Origin: Planctomycetota bacterium
GTDB lineage: Bacteria; Planctomycetota; PLA2; JAEUHO01
Assembly: GCA_020851795.1 (NCBI GenBank)
Contig: JADZCA010000029.1
Coordinates: 49,271 to 113,270 of the forward strand
Direction: 5' to 3'
DNA: 64,000 nucleotides
Made by a program: the position numbers and the translations under genes. Under the pieces are notes generated by a model. That model was not told the DNA's origin. It made no database searches and saw nothing but the letters and a program-made list of their open reading frames with translations. Every line of letters begins with the position of its first letter. Position 1 is the first letter of the stretch. Below, piece by piece: positions 151 through 23,916 of this stretch.

Positions 151-1086
151 GTGGCTGGGCCTGCGGTCGTCGGGCCCGGACTCGCGGGGGGACCGCGGTC
201 GCCCCGCGCCCGCGCGGGCCCCGGGGCGATCGCGGGATGGGCCCCGCCGCTGTCGATTCTCCTCCACCTCGCGCACCGCGCGCTCGACGACGCGTCGGGG
301 GCCGACGTCCTCGACGACCGCTCTGCGCCCGACGGCGAGGGCCTGCGGCTCGGGGCGTCCCCGGCAGCACCCCGCGCGGCGACACGCGACGCGACAGGCG
401 GTCGCCGTCGCGCGCCGTCCGCCCACGACGCGCGACCGGTGCTCTGGGTCGGGCGTCGGGTGTGGCCCTACCCGCGCGGGCTCGTGCGCACCACGGCCGG
501 CGCGCGCAGCCGGTGGCTGCTCGAGCGCTCGCTGTTCGTGGACGCCGACGACGACGGCGCGCGCCTGTGGGCGATCGACCTCGCGCTGCGCTGCCGCGCG
601 CTCGCCGCCGTCGTCGCCGACGCCCACGGGCTGCCGATGGCGGCGAGCCGACGGCTGCAGCTCGCGGCCGAGGCGGGCGACACGCTCGCGCTGCTCGCGC
701 GCCCGCCCGACGAGCTCCACGCGCCTTCGGCGGCGGCGGTGCGCTGGCTCGTCGCGCGCGAGCCGGGCGAGGTGCGCCCCGCGTGGCGCGTCACGCTGCG
801 CCGCGCCAAGGGCGCCTCGAGCGCCGCGGCGCGGGAGGCGGCGCGGCCCTTCCTCCTCGAAGGGGATCCCGTCCATGGCGTCCTCGAGGGTGTTCTCCCT
901 CTTCCTGCCGACCCTCTCGACCGACCGCGTCCGCCGGCGCCTGCGCCGCGAGGCCGCGAGCGCCGCCGCCTCGACGACGACGTCGCACGACCGGGGCGCC
1001 CGACCGCCGCGGCCGGCGTCCCCGTCTTCGTCCGCCGCGCCGCGAAGGAGCGAGGCCTCCCTCGCACGCCCGACCCGGCGCCATGA
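151..1086 (+). CDS. ImuA-like (SulA/RecA-fold) mutasome accessory protein; N-terminus may extend upstream of the window; 3' end overlaps imuB out of frame
   Basis: Position immediately upstream of imuB and dnaE2. Conserved-looking core 'RPVLWVGRRVWPYPRGLVRTT...LWAIDLALRCRALAAVV' resembles ImuA. The frame has no stop from nt 1. The last ~70 codons (875-1086) are low complexity. Confidence 0.45.
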   Translation: MAGPAVVGPGLAGGPRSPRARAGPGAIAGWAPPLSILLHLAHRALDDASGADVLDDRSAPDGEGLRLGASPAAPRAATRDATGGRRRAPSAHDARPVLWVGRRVWPYPRGLVRTTAGARSRWLLERSLFVDADDDGARLWAIDLALRCRALAAVVADAHGLPMAASRRLQLAAEAGDTLALLARPPDELHAPSAAAVRWLVAREPGEVRPAWRVTLRRAKGASSAAAREAARPFLLEGDPVHGVLEGVLPLPADPLDRPRPPAPAPRGRERRRLDDDVARPGRPTAAAGVPVFVRRAAKERGLPRTPDPAP

Positions 1087-2677
1087 CGCGCGCGCCGCGA
1101 GCACCCGACCTGCAACGCACGCGGTGACGGGCGTCGCCACGGGGCCCGCGCCGTGGACACGGCCCGTCCTCCTCGTCGTCGAGGAGCGCGGACGCCTCGT
1201 CGTCGCACGCCGCTGCCCCGCGGCGGCGGGAGCGGGCGTCGCGATCGGGATGGGGCTCGCCGAGGCGCGGGCGCTGCTGCCCGACGTCGCGCCCGTCGTC
1301 GAGCCGCACGACCCGCGTCGCGACCTCGAGACGCTCCGCGCCGTCGCCGCGTGGGCCGACCGCTTCGCGCCGCTCGTCGCGCTCGACCCGCCCGACGGGC
1401 TGCTGCTCGACGGCACGGGCTGCGCGCCGCTCTTCCACGGCGAGGAGCCGTTGCTCGAAGCGCTCGTGCGCGGCGTCGCGCGCTCCGGGCTCGCCGCGCG
1501 CGCGGCCGCCGCGGCCACGGCCGGGTGCGCGTGGGCGGTCGCGCGCTTCGCGCCCGCGCCGCGCACCGTCGTCGCGACGGGGGCCGAGCGCGAGACGCTC
1601 TCGGGCCTCCCCGTCGTCGCGCTGCGCGTGGGCGCGCAGGACGCGGCGACGCTCGCCGAGGTCGGCGTCGAACGGGTCGGTGACCTGCTGGCGCTGCCGC
1701 GGTCGGAGGTCGCGGCCCGCGTGCCCGCGGCGGTGCTCGTGCGCCTCGACCAGGCGCTCGGGCACGCCGAGGAGGCGCTCGTGCCGTACCGGCCGCGGCC
1801 GGTGCCGCGCGTCGAGCACGCCTTCCCCGGGCCCGTGAGCAGCCTCGAAGGGGTGCGCGCGACGGTGCGCCGCCTGCTCGAGGCCCTCGTCGCCGAGCTC
1901 GTGCGGGCCGGCCTCGCCGCGCTCGCCGTCGAGGTGCTGCTCGACCGCGCCGACGCGCCGCCGGTGCGCCTCGTGCGCGCGCTGTCGCGCCGGACGACCG
2001 ACGCGCGCCACCTCGCCGCACTGCTCGACCCGGCGGTCGAGACGGCCCCGCTCGGCCACGGCGTGGACCGCGTCGAGGTGCTCGCCCCGCGCACGGCGAG
2101 GGCGGCGGGCGCGGCGACGGGGGCGCTCGACCCCGCCGTGGGCGAGCCCGACCACGACCCCGCGCGCGAGCCGGGCCCGGAGCTGGCCGCGCTCCTCGAC
2201 GCGCTCGCCGGGCGGCTGGGCCCGTCGCAGGTCGTGCGCGTCGAGCCGGTCGCGACGCACGTGCCCGAGGCCGCGTTCCGCACGGTGCCCGTGCTCGCCG
2301 CCGACGGCGCGGCCGACGAGGTGTGCGCGCCCGCGTCGGACGCGGCGCCCGTCGTCGCCGCCGAGCGACCGTCGCTGCTCTACGCCCCGCCGGAGGCCGT
2401 CGAGGTGCTCCCGCCGCCGCCGGCGTGCGCGGACGACGGCGACGACGCGGGGCCCGTGGCGATCGCCTGGCGCGGGGAGGTGCTCGTGCGCGCCCGCGCG
2501 ACGGGGCCCGAGCGCATCGCGCCGCGCTGGTGGGAGCACGGATGCGGGCCGTCCGCGCCGCCGTTCCCCGAGGGCGCGCGCGACTACGTCGTGTGGACCT
2601 CGACGCGCGGGCGGCGGCTGTGGCTCTACGGCGAGACCGCGACGGGCCGCTGGTTCGTCCACGGCGAGTGGGCGTGA
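875..2677 (+). CDS. imuB: ImuB, catalytically inactive Y-family polymerase-like mutasome subunit
   Basis: N-terminus 'VFSLFLPTLSTDRVRRRL' matches the ImuB/Y-family start (WL.L.LP.L..D). 'PVLLVVEERGRLVVARRCPAAAGAGVAIGMGLAEARALLP' is the typical ImuB block. Lies directly upstream of dnaE2 with an 11-bp gap. Contains a ~70-aa low-complexity insert after the first motif. Confidence 0.75.
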   Translation: MASSRVFSLFLPTLSTDRVRRRLRREAASAAASTTTSHDRGARPPRPASPSSSAAPRRSEASLARPTRRHDARAASTRPATHAVTGVATGPAPWTRPVLLVVEERGRLVVARRCPAAAGAGVAIGMGLAEARALLPDVAPVVEPHDPRRDLETLRAVAAWADRFAPLVALDPPDGLLLDGTGCAPLFHGEEPLLEALVRGVARSGLAARAAAAATAGCAWAVARFAPAPRTVVATGAERETLSGLPVVALRVGAQDAATLAEVGVERVGDLLALPRSEVAARVPAAVLVRLDQALGHAEEALVPYRPRPVPRVEHAFPGPVSSLEGVRATVRRLLEALVAELVRAGLAALAVEVLLDRADAPPVRLVRALSRRTTDARHLAALLDPAVETAPLGHGVDRVEVLAPRTARAAGAATGALDPAVGEPDHDPAREPGPELAALLDALAGRLGPSQVVRVEPVATHVPEAAFRTVPVLAADGAADEVCAPASDAAPVVAAERPSLLYAPPEAVEVLPPPPACADDGDDAGPVAIAWRGEVLVRARATGPERIAPRWWEHGCGPSAPPFPEGARDYVVWTSTRGRRLWLYGETATGRWFVHGEWA

Positions 2678-2687
2678 GGGGGGCACG

Positions 2688-5600
2688 GTGCCCGACCGCC
2701 CGGCCCCGAAGATCGTCCCGCACCCCGCGCGCCAGCGGCGCGCGTTCCGCCCGCCGCGCGGAGCGGGCGCGGGCGGGGACGGGGCCCGCGACGTCGAGGC
2801 GTCGTGGACGCGGCGCCGCCTGCCGGCGCGTCGCACGACCTACGCCGAGCTCGCCGTCACGAGCAACCTCTCCTTCCTCGAGGGCGCCAGCCACCCCGAG
2901 GAGCTCGTCGAGCGGGCGGCCGCGCTCGGGCTCGCCGGCGTCGCGCTCACCGACCGCGGCACGCTGGGCGGGATCGTCCGCGCGCACGTCGCGGCGAAGG
3001 CGCTCGGGTTCCCGCTCGCGGTGGGCGCGCGGCTCGCGCTCGCGCGCGACCGCGCCGACGCGGCCCCGCTCGAGGTGCTCGTCTACGCGACCGACCGCGC
3101 GTCGTACGGGCGCCTGTGCCGGCTCCTCACCGTGGGCAAGCGCCGCGCGGGCAAGGGCGGCTGCGACCTCGCGCTCGACGACCTCCTCGCGGCGCACGAG
3201 GGCCTGCTCGCGGTCGCGCTCGCGCCCGCCGCCCCCGACGCCGCCTTCCTCGACGCGCTGCGCCGGCTGCACGACGCCTTCGACGACGACCGTCTCTCGC
3301 TCGGCGCGCAGAGCCCGCTCGCCGGAGACGACCGCGGCCGCGTGCGCCGTGCCCGCGCGCTCGCGCGCGACGCGGGCACGCCGCTCGTCGCGGTCGGCGA
3401 CGTCGCCTACCACGACGCGGCGCGGCGCCCGCTCCACGACGTGCTCGCCGCGGTGCGCCTCGGCACGACGGTGGCGGCCGCCGGCTTCTCGCTCGCGCCC
3501 AACGCCGAGCGCCGCCTCCACGGCGTCGCGGAGGTCGCGGCGCGCTTCACCGACGCCCCCGAGGCGCTCGCGCGCACGGGCGAGGTGCTGCGCCGCGCGG
3601 CGGCGTTCTCCCTCGACGCGCTGCGCTACGAGTACCCCGACGAGACGGGCCCGCCCGGTGTGGCGCCGCGCGAGCACCTGCGCGCGCTCGTGCTCGCCGG
3701 GGCCGCTCGCCGCTACCCGCGCGGCGTGCCCGAGAAGGTGCGCGCGCAGGTCGAGCACGAGCTCGCCGTCGTCGCGGACCTGCGCTACGAGCCGTACTTC
3801 CTCACCGTGCACGAGCTCGTCGACTTCGCGCGCTCGCGGGGGATCCTCTGCCAGGGACGCGGGGCCGCGGCCAACTCGGCCGTGTGCTACTGCCTCGGCA
3901 TCACCGCGCTCGACCCCGACCGCATGGACGTGCTCTTCGAGCGCTTCGTGAGCCGCGAGCGCGCCGAGCCGCCCGACATCGACATCGACTTCGAGCACGA
4001 GCGGCGCGAGGAGGTGATCCAGCACGTCTACGCGCGCTGGGGCCGCGACCGCGCCGCGCTCACCGCCGAGGTGATCTCCTACCGCGGGCGCAGCGCGGTG
4101 CGCGAGGTCGGCAAGGCGCTCGGCCTCTCGCGCGACGCCGTCGAGCGCCTCGCGCGCGCGGTGGACGCGTGGGCCGACGACGTGGACGGCGACCGCCTGC
4201 TCGTCGAGGCGGGCCTCGACCCCGCCGAGCCGTCGATGCGGCGCCTGCTCGCGCTGTCGAAGGAGGTGCTCGGCTTCCCGCGCCACCGCAGCCAGCACGT
4301 CGGCGGCTTCGTGGTCACGCGGGGCCCGCTCTGCGAGACCGTGCCGCTCGAGGACGCCGCGATGCCGGGCCGCACCGTGATCGAGTGGGACAAGGACGAC
4401 ATCGAGGCGCTGGGCATCCTCAAGGTGGACGTGCTCGGCCTCGGGATGCTCACGTGCGTGCGCAAGGCCTTCGCGCACGTCGAGGGCCCGCGCGGCGACC
4501 GCGCGCTCGCGACGGTGACGCAGGCGGGCGACGCGTACGGCGCGCTCGCGATGCACACCGTGCCGCCCGAGGACCCCGCCGTCTACGACATGCTCTGCGC
4601 GGCCGACACGGTCGGCGTGTTCCAGGTGGAGTCGCGGGCGCAGATGGCGATGCTGCCGCGCCTGCGGCCCCGCACGCTCTACGACCTCGCCATCGAGGTG
4701 GCGATCGTCCGCCCGGGGCCGATCCAGGGCGACATGGTGCACCCCTACCTGCGCCGCCGCCGCGGCGAGGAGCCGGTCACCTACCCGAGCCCCGACGTCG
4801 AGAAGGTGCTCGGGCGCACGCTCGGCGTGCCGCTGTTCCAGGAGCAGGCGATGGCGCTCGCCATCGTCGCCGCGGGCTTCACGCCCGGCGAGGCCGACCG
4901 CCTGCGGCGCGCGATGGCCGCGTGGAAGCGCAAGAGCCGCGAGATCGAGGTGCTGGGGCGCCAGCTCGTCGAGGGGATGGTGGCCCGCGGCTACCCGCGC
5001 GAGTTCGCCGACCGCTGCCACCGCCAGATCCACGGCTTCTCCGAGTACGGCTTCCCCGAGTCGCACGCCGCGTCGTTCGCGCTGATCGTGTACGTCTCGG
5101 CGTGGCTCAAGCGCCACCACCCCGCCGCCTTCGCCGCCGCGCTGCTCGACAGCCAGCCGATGGGCTTCTACGCCCCCGCGCAGATCGTGCGCGACGCGCG
5201 CGCCCACGGGGTGGACGTGCGCCCGGTCGACGTCAACGCGAGCGGGTTCGACTGCCGCCTCGAGCGCGAGCCCGGCCGGCCGCCCGCGCTGCGCCTCGGG
5301 ATGCGGCTCGTCACGGGGCTGTCGCGCACGCACGGCGAGGCCGTGGCGGCCGCGCGCGCCGCGGGCGCGCCCTTCGCCGCCCTCCCCGAGGTGCGGCGGC
5401 GCGCGGGCGTCCCCGCCGCCGCGCTGCGCGCGCTCGCCGCGGCCGACGCGTTCCGCTCGCTCGGGCTCGCGCGGCGCGAGGCGCTCTGGCAGGCGCGCGC
5501 GCTGCGCGACGAGGTGCTGCCGCTCTTCGACGCCCCCGCCGACGACGGGCGCCCCGATGCGGGCGCCGGCGCCACGACGGCGGACCTCGCGCTCGCCGAC

Positions 5601-6053
5601 GAGGGCCGGGCGCTGCCGCGGGCCTCGCTCCCGGCGGAGGTGGTCGCCGACTACGCGACGACGGGCCTCTCGCTCAAGGCGCACCCGATGTCGTTTCCGC
5701 GCGCCGCGCTCGCGGCGCGCGGCGTCGTGACGGCGGCGACGCTGTCCGACGACGAGCGCGCCCCCGACGGGTCGCGGGTGGCGGTGGCGGGCCTCGTGCT
5801 GGTGCGCCAGCGGCCCGTGACGGCGCACGGGATCCTCTTCGTGACGCTCGAGGACGAGACGGGGATCGCGAACCTGATCGTGCGGCCTCGCGAGCAGGAG
5901 CGGTTCCGCGCGGCCGCCCGCCACGCCGGCGTCGTGCTGGCCGTGGGCACGGTCGAGCGCGACGGCGCGGTCGTGCACGTCCTCGTGCGCCGCCTCGTCG
6001 CCTTCACCTCGCTCGCGACCGACGTGGACGCGCCCCGCCGCGAGTTCCGCTGA
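2688..6053 (+). CDS. dnaE2: Error-prone DNA polymerase III alpha subunit DnaE2 (ImuC)
   Basis: N-terminal PHP domain 'YAELAVTSNLSFLEGASHPEELVERAAALGLAGVALTDRGTLGGIVRAHVAAKALGFPLAVGARL'. About 1100 aa. Follows imuB. True start is probably a GTG/TTG near 2800-2840. Confidence 0.9.
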   Translation: MPDRPAPKIVPHPARQRRAFRPPRGAGAGGDGARDVEASWTRRRLPARRTTYAELAVTSNLSFLEGASHPEELVERAAALGLAGVALTDRGTLGGIVRAHVAAKALGFPLAVGARLALARDRADAAPLEVLVYATDRASYGRLCRLLTVGKRRAGKGGCDLALDDLLAAHEGLLAVALAPAAPDAAFLDALRRLHDAFDDDRLSLGAQSPLAGDDRGRVRRARALARDAGTPLVAVGDVAYHDAARRPLHDVLAAVRLGTTVAAAGFSLAPNAERRLHGVAEVAARFTDAPEALARTGEVLRRAAAFSLDALRYEYPDETGPPGVAPREHLRALVLAGAARRYPRGVPEKVRAQVEHELAVVADLRYEPYFLTVHELVDFARSRGILCQGRGAAANSAVCYCLGITALDPDRMDVLFERFVSRERAEPPDIDIDFEHERREEVIQHVYARWGRDRAALTAEVISYRGRSAVREVGKALGLSRDAVERLARAVDAWADDVDGDRLLVEAGLDPAEPSMRRLLALSKEVLGFPRHRSQHVGGFVVTRGPLCETVPLEDAAMPGRTVIEWDKDDIEALGILKVDVLGLGMLTCVRKAFAHVEGPRGDRALATVTQAGDAYGALAMHTVPPEDPAVYDMLCAADTVGVFQVESRAQMAMLPRLRPRTLYDLAIEVAIVRPGPIQGDMVHPYLRRRRGEEPVTYPSPDVEKVLGRTLGVPLFQEQAMALAIVAAGFTPGEADRLRRAMAAWKRKSREIEVLGRQLVEGMVARGYPREFADRCHRQIHGFSEYGFPESHAASFALIVYVSAWLKRHHPAAFAAALLDSQPMGFYAPAQIVRDARAHGVDVRPVDVNASGFDCRLEREPGRPPALRLGMRLVTGLSRTHGEAVAAARAAGAPFAALPEVRRRAGVPAAALRALAAADAFRSLGLARREALWQARALRDEVLPLFDAPADDGRPDAGAGATTADLALADEGRALPRASLPAEVVADYATTGLSLKAHPMSFPRAALAARGVVTAATLSDDERAPDGSRVAVAGLVLVRQRPVTAHGILFVTLEDETGIANLIVRPREQERFRAAARHAGVVLAVGTVERDGAVVHVLVRRLVAFTSLATDVDAPRREFR

Positions 6054-6076
6054 AGGGCGCGCAAGGCGCGCCCTTC
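6052..6076. terminator. GC-rich hairpin (11-bp perfect stem GAAGGGCGCGC / GCGCGCCCTTC, loop AAG) between convergent dnaE2 and TIR-WD40 genes
   Basis: Inverted repeat read directly. It overlaps the dnaE2 stop codon. There is no U-tract, so it is a terminator-like structure only. Confidence 0.45.
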
Positions 6077-6199
6077 CAAGGGCCGAGCAGACGGGGAGCA
6101 GGCTGGGCGGCCGCGAGGCAGATCGGAGGAGCCCGACGCGAGGGCGGGCGATGGCCCGCCGCCGGGTCGACCGCCGAGCGCCCGTCGTCCCGAGGCCCC

Positions 6200-9100
6200 T
6201 CAGCGCCGGAGCGGGAGCGTGCTCACGTCGCGCGCGACCGCCGCGGCCGCGCGACGCTCCCTCCGCAGAGGCAGGCAACGCACCTTCGACGTCTCGACGA
6301 GGACGATCGCCGTGTCGTCCAGGAACCCCACGGCACTGCAGGGCGAGTCCGTCCGCCACGAGAGCGCGAGCCGGCCGCTCACGACGTCCCAGAGCCGCAC
6401 CCACTGGTCGCCGTGCGCAACGAGCAGGAACTCGCCTTGCCGGTCCGCCTCCATCGCCGTCACCGCGTGCGGTGCGGGTCCCATCGTGAACACCGGTGCG
6501 CGGAACGTGTTCGGGTCCTCGGCGCGCTCGCCCCGCACCACGAGCGCGTGGAGAAGCGCACCCGACCGACCGTCCCAGACGCGCACGGACCCGTCGCCCT
6601 CCGCGCTCAGCAGCCGCCGGCCCGTCGGGTCGAACGCCATCGAGGTCACCACGGTGGGGGTCCGCGACAGATGCGCGGGGGACGCGGCGCCGTCCAGCGA
6701 GAGCAGGTGCATCCGACCGCTGTCGTCCATCAGCGCGACGCGATCCTCCTCGGGGCTGAGGCAGGCGAGCGAAGGCCAACCCAACGGGTCGAGGTCGGGC
6801 GCAGCCTCCGCCGCGAACCCGCGCCCTCGGTCTCGCCAGAGCGTGACACGACCGCTACCCGATCGCGTGAGGAGGGTCGTGCCGAGGGCGCCCAGCACCG
6901 CCTGGCGGTCCTCGCGCGGGAACACCTGGAGCGGCCGACGGGCCTCCAGCGGGTCGAGCGACCACAGCGCGACCCCCGACGAGCCGAAAGACACCGCGCG
7001 CCCGCCCCGCGACGCCACGGCCGCCCAGACCGTCTCCATCCCGCCCACCCGCACCCCGCCGCCCGACGTCGCCTCCACGGGCGACAGGGACGCGACCTCG
7101 CCGAGCGTCCGAGCGTCCACGACGCGCAAGACGCCCGTGTAGTACGGCGCGAGCAGGAGCCGGCTCCCATCGGCAAAGGGGACGAAGCTCAGCAGCGGCC
7201 CGTCCGTCGCCCGCACCGAGAGCGGCGCCGCCTCTCCGTCCACGTCCCACGCGAGAAGCTCTCCGGTGTGCGCCGCGACGTGGACGGTGCGAGGCCTGGC
7301 GCCGACCACGACCCGCGAGATCCCCTGCGGCACCGGCAACGACCGCTCCCGCACCCCTTGGGCCTCGCGCCACGCCCAGACGCGCAGCGTGCCGTCGCGT
7401 CCCGCGGTGACGACCTGGTCCGGGTCGTGGCCGAACGCGAGCGTGCTGAGCCCCTCGGCGACGTCCCACGCTGCGACCGACGCGCCGTCGCGGACACGGA
7501 GGACCGCGACGTCGCCCGAGTCCGTGCCCCAGAGGAGGTGCTCTCCCCGCGCATCGAAGGCGGTCGGGACTCCGACGGCGAGCGCCGCGGGTGAGCCTCG
7601 TGCCGGCGCCGCCGCCGTGCGCCAGGTGAGGGACTGCGTGTCGAGCAGGTGGATCCTCCCGTCCACGTCGTGCAGCGCGAGCAAGGTGTCGTCCGGGGCG
7701 AAGGACCACGACAGCGGTCGCGCCTCCTCCGGGGCGCGCGCGGCCTCGGCTCCGGTCCCGGCGGACAGGACGCGAAGGTCGCCCGCCGCGCCGGGGCAGA
7801 CGATCCACGCGCCTCGCGGGCTGAATCCGGTCCCGCGCGCTCCGGCCCCCGTAGGTGGCTTGGGAAGCTCGGCGGTCGTCGCCCCCGTGGAGAGGTCTAC
7901 CAAGCGTGCCCCTTCCGCTGTGATCACGAGGCCGCGGTCGCCATCCGGCGCCTCCAAGAATCGCGGGGGCGTCCCGCTGACCCCGCCGAGGTCTGACCGG
8001 ACCGTCCCGTCTCGCGCGTCGCAGACCACCGATCGCGTCCGGCTCAGCAGCACGACGAGCGAGGACCCGCGAGCGAACGCGCCGGCGTCCCAAGGTCCGG
8101 AGATCTCGCGTCGCTTCTCGCCGGACTTCACGTCCCAGAGCAGCGCGTCGGGCGACGTCCTGCTCGCGTTGTCGTGGACCAGCGTGAGCAGGAGCGCGCC
8201 GTCGCCGCCGAGGACCGCGTGGACGACGTTCCCGCGCGCGTAGAATGCATGCGGGGACGGCTCGCCGCCGGGCAGCGTCACGACCTGCGCGCGCACCGAG
8301 TCGCCGTGCTGGCGCAGCGTGACCGCAAGGCGGCCGTCCTGGGTGGCCCAGCCCTCGACCGTCCCGAAGAGCATGTTGCGGACGGTGGCCACCGGCTCGG
8401 TGCGCGAGAGGTCCCACGCGACGACGGGTTGGCCCCACGTCGGGGCCGCGAAGAGGACGGACCCGTCGGCGGACGGCCGCAGCTGCTCGACCTGCTCGGG
8501 CCGCCCCGAGAGCGTCCGACGGAGCCCGCGTGTCCGCGCCAGCGCCTCCCCGAGCAGGACCTGGCGCGCGGGCGAGCCCGGCTGCTCCGCGTACGCGTCG
8601 AGGAGGAGTCGCGTCGCGCGATCGATGTCACCGCGCACGAGCGCGTCGCGTCCGGCCTCCTCGCGCAGGTCTCCGAGCCGTTCGCTCGCCACGAGCATGC
8701 TGGCCGCCACCCGGTCGCGCTCGTCCCGCACCTGGCTCCGCTGGTTCAACGCGTAGGCGGACAGCCCGCCCAGCGCCGAGGCGAGGGCGGCGAACAGCAC
8801 GGCCGTGCGGCGCGCGCGACGTCGCTGGCGCTCCTGGTCGCGCTGGCGGAGCTCGTCGAAGCGACATCCGAGCACCGGCGCCAGGATCCGGAGCAGCGCG
8901 AGCCGGCGTTGCGCGCTGCGCGACTCGCCGGCGACGGGACGTGCGTCGGCCGCGAGCGGCTCGGGGAAGTCCACCGCCGACGGCCCGCCGACGGGTCCGC
9001 CCGTCGGACGGATCGCCCGCAGAGCCTCGGGGAACGACGCCTCCGGTGAGCCGTCGATCAGGAGCGCGAGGACCCGGCTCGCACGCCCGCGGGTGCGGAA

Positions 9101-9409
9101 CTCCTCGATCTCCCGGTTGACCCACTTCGACGCGGGCGCGCGGGGTGAGCACACGACCACGAGGAACCTCGACTCGTCCAGCGCCTGCGTGATCTGCGCG
9201 CTCAGGCTGTCCGAGGCCCACACTTCCTCCTCGTCGCGGAACACCTTCCCGACGCGAGCCGGCAGCCCCTCCCGGCGGAGCCGCTCCGGGACCGTGTACG
9301 TCTCGAGCGCGTTGTGGAGCCATCGCGCCCAGCGCCGGTCGGGCTCCACGTGGCGATAGCTGATGAACGCTGCAAAGCGCGAGGGCGCGTCGCCGTCTTC
9401 GATCTCCAT
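6200..9409 (-). CDS. TIR-domain / transmembrane / WD40 beta-propeller repeat protein (1069 aa)
   Basis: N-terminus 'FAAFISYRHVEPDRRWARWLHNALE...FRDEEEVWASDSL...FLVVVCSPRAPASKWVNREIEEF' is TIR-like. Hydrophobic helix 'RRTAVLFAALASALGGLSAYAL'. Many WD40-like repeats ('TLRVWAW', 'VRVWDGRSG', 'VRLWDVVSG'). Amino-acid composition is protein-like, unlike the overlapping R/P-rich frames. Confidence 0.75.
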   Translation of the reverse strand: MEIEDGDAPSRFAAFISYRHVEPDRRWARWLHNALETYTVPERLRREGLPARVGKVFRDEEEVWASDSLSAQITQALDESRFLVVVCSPRAPASKWVNREIEEFRTRGRASRVLALLIDGSPEASFPEALRAIRPTGGPVGGPSAVDFPEPLAADARPVAGESRSAQRRLALLRILAPVLGCRFDELRQRDQERQRRRARRTAVLFAALASALGGLSAYALNQRSQVRDERDRVAASMLVASERLGDLREEAGRDALVRGDIDRATRLLLDAYAEQPGSPARQVLLGEALARTRGLRRTLSGRPEQVEQLRPSADGSVLFAAPTWGQPVVAWDLSRTEPVATVRNMLFGTVEGWATQDGRLAVTLRQHGDSVRAQVVTLPGGEPSPHAFYARGNVVHAVLGGDGALLLTLVHDNASRTSPDALLWDVKSGEKRREISGPWDAGAFARGSSLVVLLSRTRSVVCDARDGTVRSDLGGVSGTPPRFLEAPDGDRGLVITAEGARLVDLSTGATTAELPKPPTGAGARGTGFSPRGAWIVCPGAAGDLRVLSAGTGAEAARAPEEARPLSWSFAPDDTLLALHDVDGRIHLLDTQSLTWRTAAAPARGSPAALAVGVPTAFDARGEHLLWGTDSGDVAVLRVRDGASVAAWDVAEGLSTLAFGHDPDQVVTAGRDGTLRVWAWREAQGVRERSLPVPQGISRVVVGARPRTVHVAAHTGELLAWDVDGEAAPLSVRATDGPLLSFVPFADGSRLLLAPYYTGVLRVVDARTLGEVASLSPVEATSGGGVRVGGMETVWAAVASRGGRAVSFGSSGVALWSLDPLEARRPLQVFPREDRQAVLGALGTTLLTRSGSGRVTLWRDRGRGFAAEAAPDLDPLGWPSLACLSPEEDRVALMDDSGRMHLLSLDGAASPAHLSRTPTVVTSMAFDPTGRRLLSAEGDGSVRVWDGRSGALLHALVVRGERAEDPNTFRAPVFTMGPAPHAVTAMEADRQGEFLLVAHGDQWVRLWDVVSGRLALSWRTDSPCSAVGFLDDTAIVLVETSKVRCLPLRRERRAAAAVARDVSTLPLRR

Positions 9410-9488
9410 AGGGGCTCATGATACGCACCGCGCCCGCTGCGGACGAGGCCCTCGCCCGCGACCGATGGGGGTGCGGCGCGGCGCGGGC

Positions 9489-9983
9489 TCAGCTGGAGAA
9501 CGAGCGGGACGGCCGCAGCCGCAGTCGGAACGGCAACCCCACCGAGGCGAGCTCGAGCCCGCGCGACGTCCGACGGGCGACCGCCTCGCGCCGAGACCGG
9601 CGTCCGTCGAGCGAGGCCAGCACGCCGGACAGCACGACATCGGAACCGCGACGGGCCCAGCGGCCGAAGACGACGGCCACGCCGTCGCCGTGGTCGTCTC
9701 GCCGCCGGACGCGAACCTGGAAGCGAGCGGAGCGGAAGAGCACGAGGCACACGTCGTGGAGGCCGGGCCACGGACCGAAGAGGAGGAGGGCACGCAGCGA
9801 GCACGTCCGTCGCTCGCGCGCCAACGCGACCGGCAGCACCGGCTCGCGCCCCGTCTCGACGGCCGCCCGCCTCGCCCACCGCCGCACGGGCCCGAGGTCG
9901 AGCGCGTAGGCGCGGAACGACTCGCGGGGGAGCCCGAGCGGGTCGGCGTGCGCGGCCGCAAGCACGCGCTCCGACGCTTGCAC
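9489..9983 (-). CDS. Hypothetical protein (164 aa, GTG start)
   Basis: Minus-strand frame with balanced composition (F/L/V/W present) and GC3 near 100%, while overlapping plus frames are R/P/S-rich. 80 bp upstream of the TIR-WD40 start. No recognisable family. Confidence 0.3.
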   Translation of the reverse strand: MQASERVLAAAHADPLGLPRESFRAYALDLGPVRRWARRAAVETGREPVLPVALARERRTCSLRALLLFGPWPGLHDVCLVLFRSARFQVRVRRRDDHGDGVAVVFGRWARRGSDVVLSGVLASLDGRRSRREAVARRTSRGLELASVGLPFRLRLRPSRSFSS

Positions 9984-10079
9984 CGTCCTTCGCCTCCGTG
10001 AGCGGAAGGTCCTGTCCACGCGCGCAGCATCCCCGATCGTCCGAGCGACGTCGAGCCCTCCACGGATACACTCGGCGAC

Positions 10080-10478
10080 ATGAGCCAAGCCCCCACGCCT
10101 GCCGAGGTCGTCCAGCGCGTGTACGCCGCGTTCGGGAGCGGCGACGTGAAGGCGCTCGTGGCCCTCGCCTCCCCCACGTCCACGTGGACGCTGCATGGCC
10201 CCCGGGCGCACCCCTGGGCGGGCACGTACCGCGGGACCGAAGGCCTCGGGCAGTTCCTCGCCGCGATTGCCACCGCCGTCGAGATCTCGACCTTCGAGGT
10301 CGGGGAGACGGTCGCGGCCGGCGCCACCGTGGTTGTGTTCGGCCGGGAGGCGGGCCGGTGGCGCGCCAGCGGCAAGCCCTACGGGACGACGTGGGTCCAC
10401 CGCTTCCGCGTCGAGGGCGGGCGCGTCGCCGCCTTCGACGAGTGGCTCGACACCGCGAGCGTGCTCGCGTCGCGGTAG
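10080..10478 (+). CDS. SnoaL-like / NTF2-like (ketosteroid-isomerase-fold) protein
   Basis: 132 aa; 'VYAAFGSGDVKALVALASPTSTWTLHGP...TTWVHRFRVEGGRVAAFDEWLD' is typical of the SnoaL_2/DUF4440 fold. Confidence 0.75.
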   Translation: MSQAPTPAEVVQRVYAAFGSGDVKALVALASPTSTWTLHGPRAHPWAGTYRGTEGLGQFLAAIATAVEISTFEVGETVAAGATVVVFGREAGRWRASGKPYGTTWVHRFRVEGGRVAAFDEWLDTASVLASR

Positions 10479-10484
10479 GAGGGC

Positions 10485-10535
10485 GGTGCCAGGAACGTTG
10501 TTTCCACGCCGCGTGAAAACAATTTTCCTGGCACC
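10485..10535. terminator. Long imperfect hairpin (24-nt arms, 3-nt loop) with AT-rich arms between convergent genes; arms carry TGTTTCCACG / CGTGAAAACA
   Basis: ggtgccaggaacgttgtttccacg-ccg-cgtgaaaacaattttcctggcacc read directly, with 3 mismatches. Lies between the SnoaL gene (ends 10478) and the DUF151 gene (ends 10576). Confidence 0.5.
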
Positions 10536-10575
10536 GCGGCGCGGCCCCGCGCCCGCGCGGGCTCCGCGGTCGGCG

Positions 10576-10974
10576 TCAGGCCGTGGCGGACTCTTCGATG
10601 ACCGCCTCGGCGACGAAGATCGGCGCCTTCGCCGCCGTGGCGAGCGCGATCGCGTCGCTCGGCCGCGCGTCCACCTCGGCCGAGGTGCCGTCGCGGCGCG
10701 CGAAGTGCAGCGTGGCGTAGAAGGTCCCCTCCTTGAGGTGGGTGATCTCGACCTTCTCGATCGCCCCCCCGAGCGCCTCGACGACGGCCCCGAACAGGTC
10801 GTGCGTCATCGGGCGGGGGTACTTCTCGCCGTGCACGAAGCGCTGGATCGCCTGCGCCTCGAAGAAGCCGATCACGATCGGGAACGTCCGCTCGCCGTCC
10901 TTCTCCTTGAGGAAGATGTACTGCTGGTCGCTGGTCTCGCTGATCAGGATGCGGTGCAGGACCATCTCGACCAT
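10576..10974 (-). CDS. Bifunctional nuclease (BFN / DUF151) family protein
   Basis: 'VLHRILISETSDQQYIFLKEKDGERTFPIVIGFFEAQAIQRFVHGEKYPRPMTHDLF' matches the DUF151 pattern (V.L.E..G.R.LPIWIG..EA.AI...L.G...PRP.THDL). Confidence 0.8.
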   Translation of the reverse strand: MVEMVLHRILISETSDQQYIFLKEKDGERTFPIVIGFFEAQAIQRFVHGEKYPRPMTHDLFGAVVEALGGAIEKVEITHLKEGTFYATLHFARRDGTSAEVDARPSDAIALATAAKAPIFVAEAVIEESATA

Positions 10975-13254: not shown

Positions 13255-14139
13255 ATGGCCGACGAGGCGCCCCTCCCGCCGATCCCGCCCCGCGCGCGCG
13301 ACGCCCACAAGGCGTCCGTCGGACGCGTCCTCGTCGTCGGCGGCTCGCTCGGGATGGCCGGGGCGCCGGCGCTGGCGGCGCGCGGCGCGCTCCGCGCGGG
13401 GGCAGGCCTCGTCACGGTCGCGGTGCCCCGTGCGGTGCAACCCGTCGTCGCCGGGTTCCTCGCGGAGGCGATGACCGCGCCGCTCCCGTGCGACGACTCG
13501 GGCGTGCTCGGGCCCGACGCGCTCGACGCGCTCGTCCCGCTCCTGCCGCGCGCGGACGCGGTGGTGCTCGGGCCGGGGCTCGCGCGCGCGGAGGCGACCG
13601 CGGCGTTCGTCCGCGAGGTGGTCACGACGGTGCGCGCCCCCCTCGTCGTGGACGCCGACGCGCTGCACGCGCTGCGCGGCCGCCTCGACCTGCTCGCCCG
13701 CCGCCCCGGCGCGACGGTGGTGACGCCGCACGAGGGCGAGGCGGCGGGGCTGCTCGGCGACGCGGGCGGCCTCACGCCGGCGAGCCGCGCGGAGCGCGCC
13801 GCCCGCATCGCCACGGCGGGGCGCTGCGTGTGCGTGCTCAAGGGACCCGGCACGGTCGTCACCGACGGGACCCGCACCCGCGTCAACGGCACCGGGAACG
13901 CGGTCCTCGCCACGGGCGGGACCGGTGACGTGCTGGCCGGGGTCGTGGCGGCGTTCCTCGCCGGGCTGCCCGACACCGGCGGCGACGCGTTCGGCGCGGC
14001 GGCGCTCGCGGTCCACGTCCACGGCCGCGCCGGCGACCTGCTCGCCGCGCGGCGCGGCGACCGGGGCGCGCTCGCCAGCGAGGTCGCGGACGCGCTGCCC
14101 GAGGCGGTCCGCGAGCGCGTCGAAGCGGCGCGCCCTTGA
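13255..14139 (+). CDS. nnrD: ADP-dependent NAD(P)H-hydrate dehydratase (YjeF C-terminal domain)
   Basis: 'ASVGRVLVVGGSLGMAGAPALAARGALRAGAGLVTVAVP...VLATGGTGDVLAGVVAAFLAG' matches the carbohydrate-kinase-like YjeF_C domain. Confidence 0.85.
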   Translation: MADEAPLPPIPPRARDAHKASVGRVLVVGGSLGMAGAPALAARGALRAGAGLVTVAVPRAVQPVVAGFLAEAMTAPLPCDDSGVLGPDALDALVPLLPRADAVVLGPGLARAEATAAFVREVVTTVRAPLVVDADALHALRGRLDLLARRPGATVVTPHEGEAAGLLGDAGGLTPASRAERAARIATAGRCVCVLKGPGTVVTDGTRTRVNGTGNAVLATGGTGDVLAGVVAAFLAGLPDTGGDAFGAAALAVHVHGRAGDLLAARRGDRGALASEVADALPEAVRERVEAARP

Positions 14140-17100
14140 CGTCGCGCCGCACCGCGCTCGGGATCGCGCTGGCGGCCGCGCTCGTGCCTGCGGTCGGCGT
14201 GCGGGCCGACGAGCCGGGCCCGTGCTACGCGCCCGTGCCGCCGACGGTCGCCGCCGTCGTCGGCTCGCCCGAGGAGGAGGCGCTGGCCGCACGCGCCGTC
14301 GCGGCGCTCCCCGACGCCGACGCCGAGACCCTGCGACGAGCCGAGCGCGAGCTGCTCGCCGCGGGGCCGTCGGGCGTGCGCCACGCGGTCGAGCGCCTCG
14401 CCGCCGGCGGGCTCGCGGCGCCGGCGCGGCTCGCGCTCCTCGACGTCGTCGCGGCGTCGCCGCTCGCCGACGCGGACCGCGTGCTGGCCGCGGCCGCCGA
14501 CGAGGCGACGCCCGAGGCCCGCGCGGTCGCCGCACGCGGGCTCTCCGCCGGGCGCAGCGGCCTCGCCGTCGAGGCGCTCGCCCGCCTCGCCCGCGACCCC
14601 ACGCCCGCCGTGCGGGCCGCCGCGTTGCGCGGGCTGTTCGCGATCCCGAGCCCCGCCGCCGTCGCCACGCGCACCGCGCTCCCCGCCGACCCGGTCCCCG
14701 CGGTCGAGGCGCTGCGGCTGCGGCTGCACCGCCTGCGCGGCGACGCGGGTCCCGAGGTGGCGGCGCACGCGCTGCTCGCGCTCTCGGCGTCGCCCGACGC
14801 GGCGGCGCGTCTCGAGGGCGCGCGTCTCGCCGTGGCCTGCGGCGACGACGTGCCCGAGGCGACGCGGCTCGTCGTGATGCTCGCCTTCGCCCCCGACCTC
14901 CGCACCGCCCTCGCCGCGCGCGCGGCGCTCCGCGCGCCGCTCGGCGGCTACGACGCGGAGGGCGCCGCGCTCGCCTTCGTCGAGGCGCTCGTCGCGTGGC
15001 TCGGGCGCCCGACGACGCGAGGCGCGGTCCGGGCGGCGCTCACCGACGTCGCGGCCGAGCGGCTCGCACGTCCCGTCCACGACGGGGGGCGCACGGTGGA
15101 CGGCGAGGCGCGCGAGCTGCTCGCGATGCGGCTGGGCGACGCGGGCCCCGCACTGGTCCCGCCGATCGTCGAGCGGCTGCGGACGGGGCGCTTCGAGGAC
15201 CCCGCCGACGGCGTCCGGGTGCTGCTCGCGCTCCCGCGCGACGCCGCGACGGCGGCGCTCGCGTGGCTCGCCACCTCCGACGCACCGGCCGACGTCGTGG
15301 CGCACGTCTCCGGCGGCCTGCGCGACCTCGGCCGCGTGGGCGACGAAACCACGGCGCGACGGCTGCTCGACCCGAGCCAGCCCACCGGGGTGCGGCGCGA
15401 CGTCGTGCTCGCGCTCGCGGGCGAGCCGGGCGCCTTCGCGCTGCCGTTGCTCGAGGCCGCACTGCGCGACGACGACGACGACCTCGCGGGCGCCGCCAAG
15501 GAGGCGCTGCTGTCGCGCGGGGACGCGCCGTCGCGCGCGGTGCTCGACGCCTCGCTCCTCGACGGCCGCTGGCGCCGCTTCGAGGCAGACCTGCTGCACG
15601 AGCGGGTGCGCGCGGCCGACGACGCGGCCTTCGACCTGCTCGACCGGCTCCTCGCGCGCGGGCCCGTCGTCGCGCGGGTCGCGGTGTTCGACGAGATGAA
15701 GAACCCGGCCTCGCGCCTGCGCGGGCCCCGCGCGCTCGCGATCGTGGAGCGGGCGGTCGCCGACCCCTCGCTCGGGCTCGACGCGACGAAGATCTCGTCG
15801 GCCTACACCGCCGTGGACGGGCCTCGAGGCACGGCGTACGTGCGGTCGTTCTGGGACCCTCGCAAGGACCCGCCGGTCCCGCCGATCATGCTGCGCAACC
15901 TCCGCGTCGTGCGCGCACGCGAGGCGCTCGATCTGGCGCTCGAGGTGGCGGCGGCGCTGCCCGACGGTCACCCCCTGCTCTCCGAGCTGGCGCTGGTGCT
16001 CTCCGAGGCGCCCGCGCAGGACCCGCGCCGCACCGACCCGTTCTGGCGCCGCCTGCTCACCCGCGGGACGCCGGTGCTCGTCGAGCTCGCGCTCGTCAAG
16101 CTGGCGCGGACCGAGCACGGGCCGCTCTCCGACCTGCTCGTGCCGATCCTCTCCGACCGCGGCCGCGACGCGCGGCTGCGCCAGGAGGCGCTCGTCGCGT
16201 GCACGGGCGAGCCCGGGCAGCCGCCGGCGGCGCTGCTGTGGTCGATCGCGTCGGACCGCACCGAGGACGAGGACCTGCGCGCGGCGGCCGCCGAGGCGCT
16301 GTCGGGGCGGCGCGACGCGGCGACGCGCGAGCGCGCGCTCGCCTGGCTCGCCGAGCGCGTGGACGAGGAGAGCGAGACCGTCGTGCGCGTCGCGGCGGTC
16401 GCGGCAGCGGGGGCGAGCACCGGCGAGGCCGCGGACCTGCTCCAGATGTTCGACGACGAGGTCGCCTCGCTCTACGAGACGCGGCCGTACTACCGCTCGC
16501 GCGAGGACGAGGGCCGCACCGCGCGACGCGCCCGCGCGGCCGCGCTCGCCGGCGCCGTCGTCGCGACCGGCGACGCCGCGGCGGCCGAGGCGCTCGCGTC
16601 GCGGCTCCTCGACCCGCGCTTCGCCGCCTACTCCGCGGAAGCGCGGCGTCACGGCGCCTTCGGCCGCGGGCGCGGCGGCGGGCCGCTCGCCGCGCTCTCG
16701 GACCCGCCCGAGGCCGAGATCCTCCTGCACCAGGCCGAGGCGAACCCGAACGCGACCCCGACGCCGGCCGTGCCGCGCGAGGCGTGGGCGATCGTGCGCG
16801 CGCTCGCACGCCGCGGCGGCGACGAGGCCCCGCGACGCGTGGCGCGCGCGCTCGCGGAGGCGCGCGCGTCGGGACGGCTGGCCGCGTTCTCCGACCTCTA
16901 CGTCGTCTGGCTCGCGCTGGGCGCACGCACGCCCGGCGCCGAGGAGGACGGCCGTCCGCCGGGCACGACCGAGGACGGGGTCGCATCCGCGCTGCTCTCG
17001 GCGCTGGACCGCACCTATCCCGCCGCCGGCGCGGAGGAGACGCTCGCCGCCGAGCTCGCGACCGCGCGCGCCGCGACCGCCGGCGCGTGGACGGCGGCCG

Positions 17101-19930: not shown

Positions 19931-20056
19931 GGAGAGGCGACGGTACCCGGAGCCGTTGGGAGCGCCAGCACCCCCCGGGCTGACCGACCAGGGACCGGGG
20001 GGAGTGCATCGGGGCGGGCCTGACGTTCTCATGGGCGTCGCCGTCGAGGAGGTCCC

Positions 20057-23821: not shown

Positions 23822-23916
23822 CGCACGCCGGACGGCAGGCCACGCCTCCACCCGGGCGGGCCGTGGGCGCTCCGGTTGTGCTTGCAGGCGCTGGGGGCCG
23901 GGCGTAGCAGGGAGGC

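Follow-up and report, generated by a model that had tools for sequence, protein, structure and literature searches.

Is a bacterial protein that joins a TIR domain to a large repeat domain through a single hydrophobic helix a receptor, and if so, what would it do with the cue that it receives? The question is raised by one gene in a 64-kb window, by which we mean the whole stretch of 64,000 nucleotides that was analysed. Bacterial TIR immunity (Thoeris, CBASS, Pycsar, pAgo and Avs effectors) has been presented as answering infection, and none of the papers on those systems that we consulted describes a TIR protein with an outside sensor. We report that the gene belongs to a very large family in which a TIR-transmembrane (TM) module carries a variable sensor, predicted to lie outside, and for which we found no published description. 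The gene and the cassette that faces it are as follows.

875-2677, + strand: imuB-like gene, convergent with the TIR gene
2688-6053, + strand: dnaE2, convergent with the TIR gene
6200..9409, - strand: TIR gene, complete, from the ORF list; ATG start, 1069 aa

The codon-position GC of the gene (0.76/0.57/0.91) matches that of real genes in this window of 75-82% GC, with the third-position value at the low end within the window, and the ORFs that overlap it in other frames show non-coding GC patterns. Its product is 100% identical to the database protein MCC7137809.1 (“TIR domain-containing protein”, Planctomycetota MAG) and is encoded in two further samples, which makes three independent samples in all. 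The Planctomycetota label of that identical protein overturns the placement in Myxococcota made by the initial annotation, and the word “giant” used there is too strong for a protein that is large at 1069 aa. Convergence with an SOS mutasome cassette was correctly noted, as the imuB-like gene and dnaE2 both face the TIR gene from the + strand. This convergence is positional only; a functional tie to imuB-dnaE2 is unsupported, and the neighbours differ at other family loci. The window copy is solo and well-formed, its surroundings in the 64-kb window are housekeeping genes with no defence island, and no paralogue of either the TIR domain or the propeller was found elsewhere in the window. Along the protein, the following features were delimited.

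8870..9376, - strand: TIR domain, aa 12-180 (Pfam TIR_2, AF2 model, Foldseek)
9110..9112, - strand: codon of Glu100, the residue that aligns with the catalytic glutamate in NAD-cleaving TIR domains (codon checked)
8807..8869, - strand: conserved juxtamembrane helix, aa 181-201, GCRFDELRQRDQERQRRRARR (alignments, AF2)
8741..8806, - strand: single TM helix, aa 202-223, TAVLFAALASALGGLSAYALNQ (hydropathy)
8531..8740, - strand: post-membrane helical stalk and small helical bundle, aa 224-293 (AF2)
6269..8524, - strand: tandem WD40-type beta-propellers, aa 296-1047, predicted extracytoplasmic (Pfam, AF2, Foldseek)

The N-terminal TIR domain had first been proposed from three motifs, all of which are there (FISYRH at aa 15-20, FRDEEE at aa 57-62 and WVNRE at aa 96-100), and the HMM check bears the proposal out: Pfam TIR_2 (PF13676) matches aa 15-122 with an E of 4e-12 and 47.1 bits against a gathering score of 28. 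The protein also scores 33.5 bits with ThsB_TIR (gathering score 21.2) and 21.4 with TIR PF01582 (threshold 21.3). An AF2 model of aa 1-245 (pLDDT 89.2, pTM 0.80) has the flavodoxin-like fold of five parallel strands (12-17, 56-58, 80-87, 113-117 and 153-155) with flanking helices. When searched against PDB with Foldseek, it matches many solved TIR domains with a probability of 1.00, with Roq1, SARM1 and RUN1 at the top. The catalytic glutamate position is occupied by E100 in the motif S94-x-W96-V-N-x-E100, on the helix after strand C, where it aligns with the Glu of S-S-W-C-L-D-E-L in the plant TIR chain 3jrn. E100 is invariant in two family alignments (A1, 23 sequences; A2, 36 sequences) and at least 90% conserved in a third (A3, 50 species loci). 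W96, four residues before it, is also family-invariant, and every family-invariant TIR and juxtamembrane residue is kept in the 1069-aa protein.

Immediately after the TIR domain, the family shares the juxtamembrane consensus LGCRFDDLRQREQERRxRR, in which D185, R190 and R194 are invariant (L187 too in A1) and both F184 and R188 reach a conservation of 90% or more. In the AF2 model residues 184-293 are helical, TM segment included, and the juxtamembrane and TM segments form one unbroken helix (184-258), followed by helices at 262-275 and 280-293 (pLDDT about 75-85). That there is one hydrophobic helix agrees with the hydropathy profile, where aa 202-223 are the sole peak of at least 1.6 in the protein. 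This helix is Ala/Gly-rich and moderately hydrophobic (Kyte-Doolittle 1.84), while those of homologues reach 2.0-3.0, the typical TM range. An equivalent helix was found in 117 of 120 homologues, and in 116 of these 117 the flank on the N-side holds more K/R than that on the C-side (mean 6.1 on the TIR side and 3.4 on the repeat side). On the basis of hydropathy and the positive-inside rule, we predict an inner-membrane protein with TIR in the cytoplasm and repeats outside (N-in, C-out).

The repeat domain itself is modelled by AlphaFold2 as 61 beta-strands over aa 296-1047, corresponding to about 15 blades of degenerate repeats, with many blocks at pLDDT 80-94. Pfam WD40 (PF00400) scores 57.8 bits against a gathering score of 27, many other beta-propeller families match as well, and the top Foldseek matches of the region are the double propellers 2ymu, Utp21 and Apaf-1 (E 1e-27 to 1e-25), so that the more than 700 aa of WD40-like repeats first described are seen by HMMs and structure prediction alike. 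The full-length model has a pTM of 0.45, leaving the relative arrangement of the domains uncertain, which counts against reading the protein as a receptor. So does the degeneracy of the repeats relative to homologues, with just two Pfam WD40 stretches, which could reflect relaxed constraint. When the ectodomain served as the only query, 11 further relatives came up at E<=1e-10. Most share about 25% identity with it, and Pkinase-bearing proteins and cytoplasmic NACHT/nSTAND-WD40 proteins are among them; with so few and such remote relatives, close sharing of the ectodomain with other receptors is not demonstrable.

How common is this arrangement? The family is defined here by an N-terminal TIR domain with EPLAADxR, the motif LGCRFDDLRQRExERR and a TM helix immediately after. 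The 1069-aa protein has EPLAADAR at aa 150-157 along with the other two features, and matches the family profile with an E of 3.7e-95, from a profile alignment that includes the protein itself. At E<=1e-30, the TIR-juxtamembrane-TM module forms at least 8,296 clusters (50% identity) from many phyla. A pattern search with the juxtamembrane motif as query recovered at least 279 species genomes/loci from Planctomycetota, Verrucomicrobiota, Proteobacteria, Myxococcota, Acidobacteriota, Clostridia and others. The module is constant, with 50-60% identity across phyla, and in the C-terminal part WD40, TPR and FGE-sulfatase domains are interchanged or the sequence has diverged to about 25% identity; precomputed Pfam lists for the C-termini of homologues add LysM, PD40, PQQ-like and type II secretion pseudopilin domains. 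To judge from the sequences, a constant signalling module with a variable sensor describes the family. Ectodomain swapping and rapid divergence on a constant module are typical of immune receptors, and also of sensor kinases. The initial annotation had called the architecture uncharacterised, and with regard to function this stands, as our full-text literature search found no description of a TIR-TM-WD40 protein, the nearest published work being that on kinase-TM-WD40 receptors (PMC11032199) and the preprint that expanded Thoeris (bioRxiv 10.64898/2025.12.03.692087); a rarity it is not. Likewise, of the alternative raised there, a common housekeeping family with a known function, the commonness was found and the known function was not.

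The earlier statement that no Thoeris or CBASS partner lies nearby holds for the entire 64-kb window, in which homologues of SLATT, TPR-S and RyR partners were also not found, and this too counts against a receptor. The window copy has neither an adjacent signal-binding effector (SLOG, Macro, SLATT, TPR and the like) nor a defence-island location or curated-model match, which are among the criteria for Thoeris. PADLOC returned weak, generic matches to short TIR stretches (best PDC-S66, E 4e-5; ThsB, 1.5e-3), NCBIfam likewise gave weak generic TIR matches, and assignment to a known defence system was rejected. No phage matches to the family were found and the similarity to plasmids, ten large plasmids/chromids, is confined to the TIR domain, so there is no mobile-element signature.

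Elsewhere in the family the picture is more varied. In an all-against-all comparison of neighbouring ORFs across 80 species loci, a candidate signal-sensing partner lies within 8 kb in 16 loci and within 600 bp in 11. Among them are membrane proteins with a SLATT domain (46.7 and 41.3 bits with NCBIfam SLATT_1, whose cutoff is 41), a protein that combines TPR-S with a nucleotide cyclase, and TM-TrkA_N-RyR channel-like proteins. The same effector classes are used by Thoeris types VII, VIII and X, of which type VII consists of a TIR protein and the SLATT effector ThsH with a cADPR signal (bioRxiv 10.64898/2025.12.03.692087). The partner-bearing loci are dispersed through the family and include members 53-56% identical to the TIR module of the window, and the partner classes suggest a signal-generating role in part of the family. 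Solo loci make up 80% of those sampled, which again counts against the receptor reading, and no universal neighbour was found across the 80 loci, where partners occur in subsets only. The largest neighbour cluster, an ABC transporter ATPase at 14 loci, was discarded as chance because its positions are scattered; signalling proteins (nucleotide cyclase, RelA/SpoT, response regulator) are among the neighbours at other loci.

We give even chances to the reading that the protein is a receptor-type TIR enzyme, through which a cue from outside the cytoplasm leads to NAD+ cleavage or signalling. It would be a single-pass inner-membrane protein (N-in, C-out) whose cytoplasmic TIR domain carries the predicted catalytic Glu, and its basic juxtamembrane helix, running into the TM helix, would link this domain to the outside stalk and double propeller. 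An event at the propellers, whether the binding of a ligand, contact with a component of a phage or foreign cell, or a disturbance of the envelope, would gather receptor molecules within the membrane. TIR enzymes are active only as oligomers, as established for SARM1, plant TIRs, AbTir and ThsB, and clustering would thus turn on NAD+ cleavage. The outcome might be direct NAD+ depletion, or a cADPR-type nucleotide acting on an effector encoded elsewhere. More tentatively, and as a possibility about which we are rather doubtful, the family may be a “transmembrane Thoeris” of surface receptors with a propeller, TPR or lectin-like sensor. Such receptors would detect a phage particle, a component of a predator or competitor, or envelope damage, before or without the entry of foreign DNA. 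The signal, passing through the juxtamembrane and TM helix, would assemble the TIR domains to make a cADPR-type messenger or to drain NAD+. On this view, thousands of lineages of bacteria would possess a functional equivalent of the Toll-like receptor, one whose TIR domain is an enzyme.

With the ThsB-type sensors of Thoeris, the protein shares a TIR domain with Glu at the catalytic position and the match to Pfam ThsB_TIR, and candidate partners of the three Thoeris effector classes adjoin its relatives at the 16 loci above. It differs in that its TIR domain is fused to a TM helix and large repeats predicted to lie outside, with no adjacent effector. The described ThsB proteins are presented as phage-infection sensors, and standalone TIR proteins were excluded from the study that expanded Thoeris (bioRxiv 10.64898/2025.12.03.692087); as far as we found, the ThsB literature does not describe a version that has a TM helix and repeats outside the cell. 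In structure, the TIR domain comes closest to SARM1 and the plant TNL and TIR-only NADases (Roq1, RUN1, RPS4, L6), with which it shares the S-x-W-x-x-x-E helix, but these are controlled through cytosolic ARM/SAM or NB-ARC-LRR modules, whereas control here would cross a membrane helix. The single-pass layout and the menu of predicted periplasmic repeats recall receptors of Planctomycetota and myxobacteria in which a kinase is followed by one TM helix and WD40, TPR or FGE-sulfatase domains, placed in the periplasm by DeepTMHMM in the Planctomycetota Ser/Thr kinases (PMC11032199), although the cytoplasmic output is TIR and not a protein kinase. An N-terminal TIR domain and C-terminal repeats are also found in the bacterial NLR-like TIR-STAND-WD40/TPR proteins (Avs, bNACHT, AP-ATPase). 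Unlike these, the 1069-aa protein has no NTPase switch domain, as no NTPase family (NB-ARC, NACHT) is among its Pfam or NCBIfam matches; a TM helix stands there instead, and by this replacement sensor and effector would come to lie on opposite sides of the membrane.

The layout that the TM helix and its charge bias lead us to predict here, with a repeat sensor outside, a cytoplasmic TIR domain and one TM helix between them, would be that of animal TLRs, whose sensor is an extracellular solenoid or repeat domain. The order is inverted, with an N-terminal TIR and a type II orientation as opposed to type I; the sensor, C-terminal to the TM helix, is a WD40 propeller and not leucine-rich repeats; and the TIR domain resembles enzymatic rather than scaffold TIRs. 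Nothing indicates common descent of the whole TLR-like architecture. A 2024 survey noted that TLR-like features, TM plus LRR, seem absent from bacterial TIR systems (PMC11350192).

Several other explanations compete with a receptor-type TIR enzyme. The one we take most seriously, while considering it unlikely, is a general transmembrane receptor with no immune role. It would do with a TIR output what the Ser/Thr kinase-TM-WD40/TPR receptors, which are expanded in both Planctomycetota and myxobacteria, do with a kinase. In response to a cue from the environment or from other cells, an NAD+-derived second messenger would be produced that serves ordinary physiology. The ectodomain repertoire and predicted topology match those of Planctomycetota kinases (PMC11032199). 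Pkinase domains in some remote ectodomain relatives, the location among housekeeping genes and outside any defence island, the lack of a link to phages or plasmids, and the cyclase, RelA/SpoT and response regulator neighbours elsewhere all fit as well. What speaks against it is that the partners which recur belong to effector classes of the cell-killing type (SLATT) from Thoeris systems that have been validated, and that, to our knowledge, every characterised bacterial TIR enzyme acts in defence or as a toxin; the ectodomain swapping and fast divergence look immune-receptor-like, though sensor kinases show them too. We find it improbable that the TIR domain is a non-catalytic interaction module and the protein a membrane scaffold, as in animal TLRs and their adaptors, whose TIR domains are regarded as scaffolds. 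The family profile does pick up plant and TLR TIR chains by sequence, TLR1 and TLR2 are among the sequence and structure matches, and the TLR2 chain also has Glu at the position of E100, so this residue alone is no proof of catalysis. However, the best structural matches (Roq1, SARM1, RUN1) are enzymatic, WVNxE and FISYR are presumably similar to SARM1 active-site strings, E100 and W96 are conserved across thousands of divergent members, and the window encodes no second TIR protein that could be recruited.

The two remaining alternatives concern the helix and the state of the gene. If the helix were an anchor only, or did not span the membrane, the propellers would be cytoplasmic and read an intracellular cue, as in NLR-like TIR-STAND-WD40 proteins. 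Classical WD40 propellers are indeed mostly cytoplasmic, the helix is Ala/Gly-rich with modest hydropathy, and NACHT/STAND-WD40 proteins are among the remote relatives of the ectodomain. Yet with one span and no signal peptide the two large domains cannot lie on the same side; the helices of homologues are more hydrophobic, the charge bias is nearly universal, and members with FGE-sulfatase, LysM, PD40 or pseudopilin domains fit an outside location, so that we see little chance for this explanation. We rate as very improbable that the gene is a paralogue which has been orphaned or is decaying and no longer serves a function. Its degenerate repeats, an ectodomain with no close relative, the lack of a partner gene and the low GC3 would all agree with decay, but the 3.2-kb frame is unbroken and shows the GC pattern of coding sequence along its whole length, none of the residues that are invariant in the TIR domain and juxtamembrane helix of the family has been lost, the propeller is modelled confidently, and an identical protein occurs in three independent samples.

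If the receptor-type reading is true, outside-in sensing would join NAD+-based signalling in bacteria, and the family would offer a simple system for the activation of TIR enzymes across a membrane. The question of whether the TLR layout has a single origin or several would be touched as well. The message of this window is a smaller one, that of a family member found solo in the very GC-rich MAG of an uncultured representative of Planctomycetota.

A minor observation concerns the upstream side of the gene. A scan of 5900-10600 for promoters and terminators found none, which is uninformative given the GC content of the region. The gene had been described as lying between dnaE2 and a small ORF (9489-9983); the former neighbour is confirmed, and the latter is disrupted in two near-identical strains by the loss of the following segment.

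9517..9913, no strand: 397-bp segment missing from two near-identical strains; inside ORF 9489-9983, outside the TIR system

Because of this deletion and because a Pfam search of the ORF gave no family match, it is not conserved and probably not a gene, and was set aside as a candidate partner. In a blastn comparison of the two strains (L001 and L002) with the window, identity is 99.9% up to the break on the side of the TIR gene and drops to 94-97% past it, and the junction of the 397-bp deletion has only a short run of shared bases.

The protein encoded on the minus strand at 6200-9409 of the window belongs to a family in which an N-terminal TIR domain is followed by a basic juxtamembrane helix, a transmembrane (TM) helix and a variable C-terminal part (hereafter the TIR-JM-TM family). 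The interest lies in the large size of this family, the gene in the window being an ordinary solo member. Because the GC content of the window is extremely high (0.72-0.83 when taken per 1 kb), long spurious ORFs are plentiful in every frame. The frame at 6200-9409, which translates to 1069 aa, has a codon-position GC of 0.76/0.57/0.91, the same pattern as its clearly real neighbour dnaE2 (0.81/0.53/0.99), and the patterns of overlapping ORFs in other frames are inverted. An in-frame stop lies only two codons upstream of the ATG, which leaves no doubt about the start. Among 5.8 billion proteins searched there was an identical entry, MCC7137809.1, a “TIR domain-containing protein” on a 177-kb contig of a Planctomycetota MAG, and the Myxococcota context assumed in the initial annotation is amended accordingly. 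A GC content of 72-83%, with GC3 up to 0.99, is unusually high for DNA filed under Planctomycetota, and the MAG label may deserve checking. The convergent position of the gene beside the dnaE2 cassette was confirmed:

237-1127, plus strand, possible imuA-like ORF, no Pfam match
875-2677, plus strand, imuB-like Y-family polymerase homologue, weak IMS matches
2688-6053, plus strand, dnaE2
6200-9409, minus strand, TIR gene

The TIR-like motifs quoted in the initial annotation are present in the translation, and its reading of a TIR domain, one hydrophobic helix and WD40 repeats is borne out by a lone hydropathy peak at aa 202-223 and by the following Pfam matches, which include a significant TIR hit:

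aa 15-122, TIR_2, 47.1 bits against a gathering score of 28
ThsB_TIR, 33.5 bits against a gathering score of 21.2
WD40, 57.8 bits against a gathering score of 27, together with many beta-propeller families

Modelling of aa 1-245 with AlphaFold2 from an alignment of 23 family members gave a confident structure (pLDDT 89.2, pTM 0.80) that consists of a TIR fold with five strands (aa 12-180) followed by a single long helix starting at aa 184. Foldseek against the PDB ranked the TIR domains of Roq1, SARM1, RUN1, RPV1 and RPS4 at the top, with TLR1, TLR2, AbTir and BtpA lower. Plant TIR chains were matched at the sequence level by the family profile, which aligned the family motif S-x-W-V-N-x-E to S-S-W-C-L-D-E-L of chain 3jrn. 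The Glu of this motif, established as the catalytic residue in plant TIRs and SARM1, is present in the query as E100 (codon 9110-9112); in the Foldseek listing, PDB entry 7s2z is titled as a RUN1 “E100A mutant” bound to NAD. The query is a TIR superfamily member with the hallmark of enzymatic TIRs, and its TIR domain is probably catalytically competent.

Hundreds of relatives were found among the 5.8 billion proteins. Their first 200-300 residues are 45-60% identical to the query, and the remainder is either 25-30% identical or a different domain (TPR, FGE-sulfatase or, from precomputed Pfam lists, LysM). Of 1.84 billion cluster representatives compared with a TIR-juxtamembrane-TM profile, 21,120 matched at E<=1e-3, 15,892 at E<=1e-10 and 8,296 at E<=1e-30, nearly all of the best 150 matches covering almost the whole profile. 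Scanning a single genome for each species gave at least 279 carriers, from Planctomycetota, Verrucomicrobiota, Alpha-, Beta-, Gamma- and Deltaproteobacteria, a Nannocystis (Myxococcota), Acidobacteriota, Thermoleophilia, Bacteroidota, Cloacimonadota and Clostridia/Lachnospiraceae. TIR_2 was matched by 49 of 50 carrier proteins and WD40 propellers were present in 28-29 of the 50; Firmicutes members are likewise TIR-TM-WD40.

The initial annotation was correct in its overall reading, the amendments being to rarity, taxonomy and the upstream ORF. Its view of the architecture as uncharacterised stands in so far as full-text searches of the literature gave no description of TIR-TM-WD40, although papers beyond that coverage could exist; with 8,296 cluster representatives at E<=1e-30, the architecture is not rare. 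Bacterial TIRs with an NBD plus WD40, TPR or LRR appear in a review of TIR architectures, which does not list TIR-TM-WD40. According to a 2024 survey, bacterial TIR systems seem to lack membrane features of the TLR kind (PMC11350192). The query differs from NLR-like TIR proteins in the absence of the defining NTPase, and from TLRs in the absence of LRR and in its inverted domain order; it can be likened to a ThsB-type TIR set in a TLR-like layout.

To look for partner genes, the flanking ORFs of 80 species loci were compared all against all. No universal neighbour was found across the 80 loci, and in two individual homologue loci the neighbours are unrelated; three partner classes recur. The first is a 500-700-aa protein whose soluble N-terminal part has weak SLOG-family matches and whose 2-4 TM helices match DUF4231 and SLATT_1 (NCBIfam SLATT_1, 46.7 and 41.3 bits, cutoff 41). 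Nine loci from five or more phyla have it, six of them with the gene within 240 bp of the TIR gene. The second, a TPR-S plus nucleotide-cyclase protein, occurs in seven loci, and the third, TM-TrkA_N-RyR or RelA/SpoT-SLOG-RyR proteins, in eight. Representative loci are:

L070:7971-12143 (Alkalibacter mobilis M17, a cultured isolate), L069, L044, L009, L028 and L076, loci with an adjoining SLATT gene
L041:5912-7951, L063:5872-7911 and L084:5873-7849, ~680-aa protein with TPR-S (sensor TPR), a MAP3K TRAF-binding-like region and an adenylate/guanylate cyclase
L025:4241-6103, L044:488-2155, L076:5286-7454, L055:4034-6748 and 13369-15216, TM helices with TrkA_N (RCK/NAD-binding) and a C-terminal RyR

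The SLATT protein lies directly after or before the TIR-TM-WD40 gene, at 4-240 bp; in L070 the SLATT gene comes second, 4 bp behind the TIR-TM-WD40 gene. A further cultured carrier of the family is beta proteobacterium AAP51 (L013). The three ~680-aa cyclase proteins are encoded in the same orientation as the TIR-TM-X gene and end 19-23 bp before it. One protein of the RyR set carries RelA/SpoT, SLOG (LSDAT_prok) and RyR. At least one partner class lies within 8 kb in 16 of the 80 loci and within 600 bp in 11, and such loci occur throughout the family, some of them in members 53-56% identical to the query module.

Thoeris types validated in a preprint of December 2025 include type VII, in which a TIR signals through cADPR to a SLATT effector, type VIII, in which cADPR carries the signal to a TPR-bearing effector, and type X, in which a TIR signals to an ion channel; standalone TIR proteins were discarded there (bioRxiv 10.64898/2025.12.03.692087). 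The SLATT-adjoining loci are similar in arrangement to type VII, but their TIR is of the membrane-receptor type. As the same preprint notes, cADPR gates ryanodine-receptor channels in animals, which makes an RyR domain near family members suggestive. Since the partner classes are effector classes of validated Thoeris types, the comparison argues for generation of a signal by the family TIR in at least some lineages. No homologue of the partner classes was found in the window. In 11 loci a TIR paralogue adjoins the family gene.

In a full-length model of the query (pLDDT 77.1, pTM 0.45), a single helix at aa 184-258 spans the juxtamembrane motif, TM segment and stalk, followed by a small helical bundle (aa 262-293) and 61 beta-strands forming about 15 four-stranded blades (aa 296-1047). 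Foldseek matched the propeller part to the tandem double propellers 2ymu (Nostoc), Utp21 and Apaf-1 (E 1e-27 to 1e-25). The relative placement of domains is not readable from this model, owing to its low pTM. A rival reading would leave the propellers in the cytoplasm. Against it, 117 of 120 relatives have a hydrophobic helix at the equivalent place, with a conserved basic helix (consensus LGCRFDDLRQREQERRxRR) in front of it in every case, and Lys/Arg are richer in the 15 residues before it than in the 15 after in 116 of 117 homologues (means 6.1 and 3.4). By the positive-inside rule this would place the TIR in the cytoplasm, in keeping with the dependence of a TIR enzyme on cytoplasmic NAD+, and the repeats outside. 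An outside C-terminal part is consistent with the confirmed FGE-sulfatase domain of some members, as well as with the LysM, PD40/PQQ-like and pseudopilin domains of others (precomputed Pfam annotation). Planctomycetota Ser/Thr kinases have the same layout, with a cytoplasmic kinase and WD40, TPR or sulfatase-modifying-enzyme domains predicted to be periplasmic behind a single TM helix (PMC11032199), and the ectodomain logic is common to both. We regard the predicted architecture and topology as very probable. The FGE-sulfatase domain that replaces WD40 in some members also occurs in the window without TIR, in a separate 358-aa protein (34461-35537, minus strand).

The most likely reading is that the query is a single-pass receptor. 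An extracytoplasmic cue would act on the propellers and change the association state of the receptor in the membrane, so that the cytoplasmic TIR domains would come together as an active oligomer; this would lead to NAD+ depletion or to a cADPR-type nucleotide acting on an unlinked effector. Receptor-type activation of this TIR is proposed tentatively, at slightly less than even chances. Against the rival of a non-catalytic scaffold, E100 is invariant in the 23-member and 36-member alignments, and in 50 members from different species its conservation is at least 90%. A decaying paralogue is another rival: the query ectodomain is a family outlier, matching only 11 other proteins at E<=1e-10 when searched alone (most ~25% identical); on the other side stand the intact frame and its coding pattern. 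Between a defence receptor and an ordinary signalling receptor, the Thoeris-like partners of relatives speak for the former. The query locus itself differs from Thoeris in the defining features tested, having neither an adjacent effector nor a defence context. Its surroundings are not a defence island: upstream lie SnoaL-like and bifunctional-nuclease-domain genes, asparaginase II and NAD(P)HX dehydratase, and further on Dus, a radical-SAM protein, a P-type ATPase, HEAT-repeat proteins and acyl-CoA dehydrogenase. A role specifically in defence is rather doubtful.

The small ORF at 9489-9983, singled out in the initial annotation as a neighbour, was rejected as a partner gene: it has no family match, and 397 bp of it (9517-9913) are absent from two assemblies of other samples encoding the identical TIR protein (loci L001 and L002, near-identical strains). 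At this insertion/deletion polymorphism, identity to these assemblies is 99.9% towards the gene and 94-97% on the far side; the junction has only a short stretch of shared bases, and the window holds no second copy of the segment save a 16-base chance match. In the SOS-mutagenesis-type cassette (151-6053, plus strand), the imuA-like and imuB-like candidate ORFs overlap by ~250 bp and their true starts are ambiguous. A few kb away from the TIR gene are two HEAT-repeat proteins of 1115 aa (14136-17483) and 424 aa (20024-21298), both on the plus strand. The P-type cation ATPase (23908-26640, plus strand) is 14.5 kb away, and a related ATPase lies ~0.7-2.8 kb (mostly ~2.7 kb) upstream of the TIR-TM-WD40 gene in five loci (L052, L053, L062, L068 and one more), most of them apparently Clostridia; this proximity probably reflects chance together with local synteny between closely related loci.
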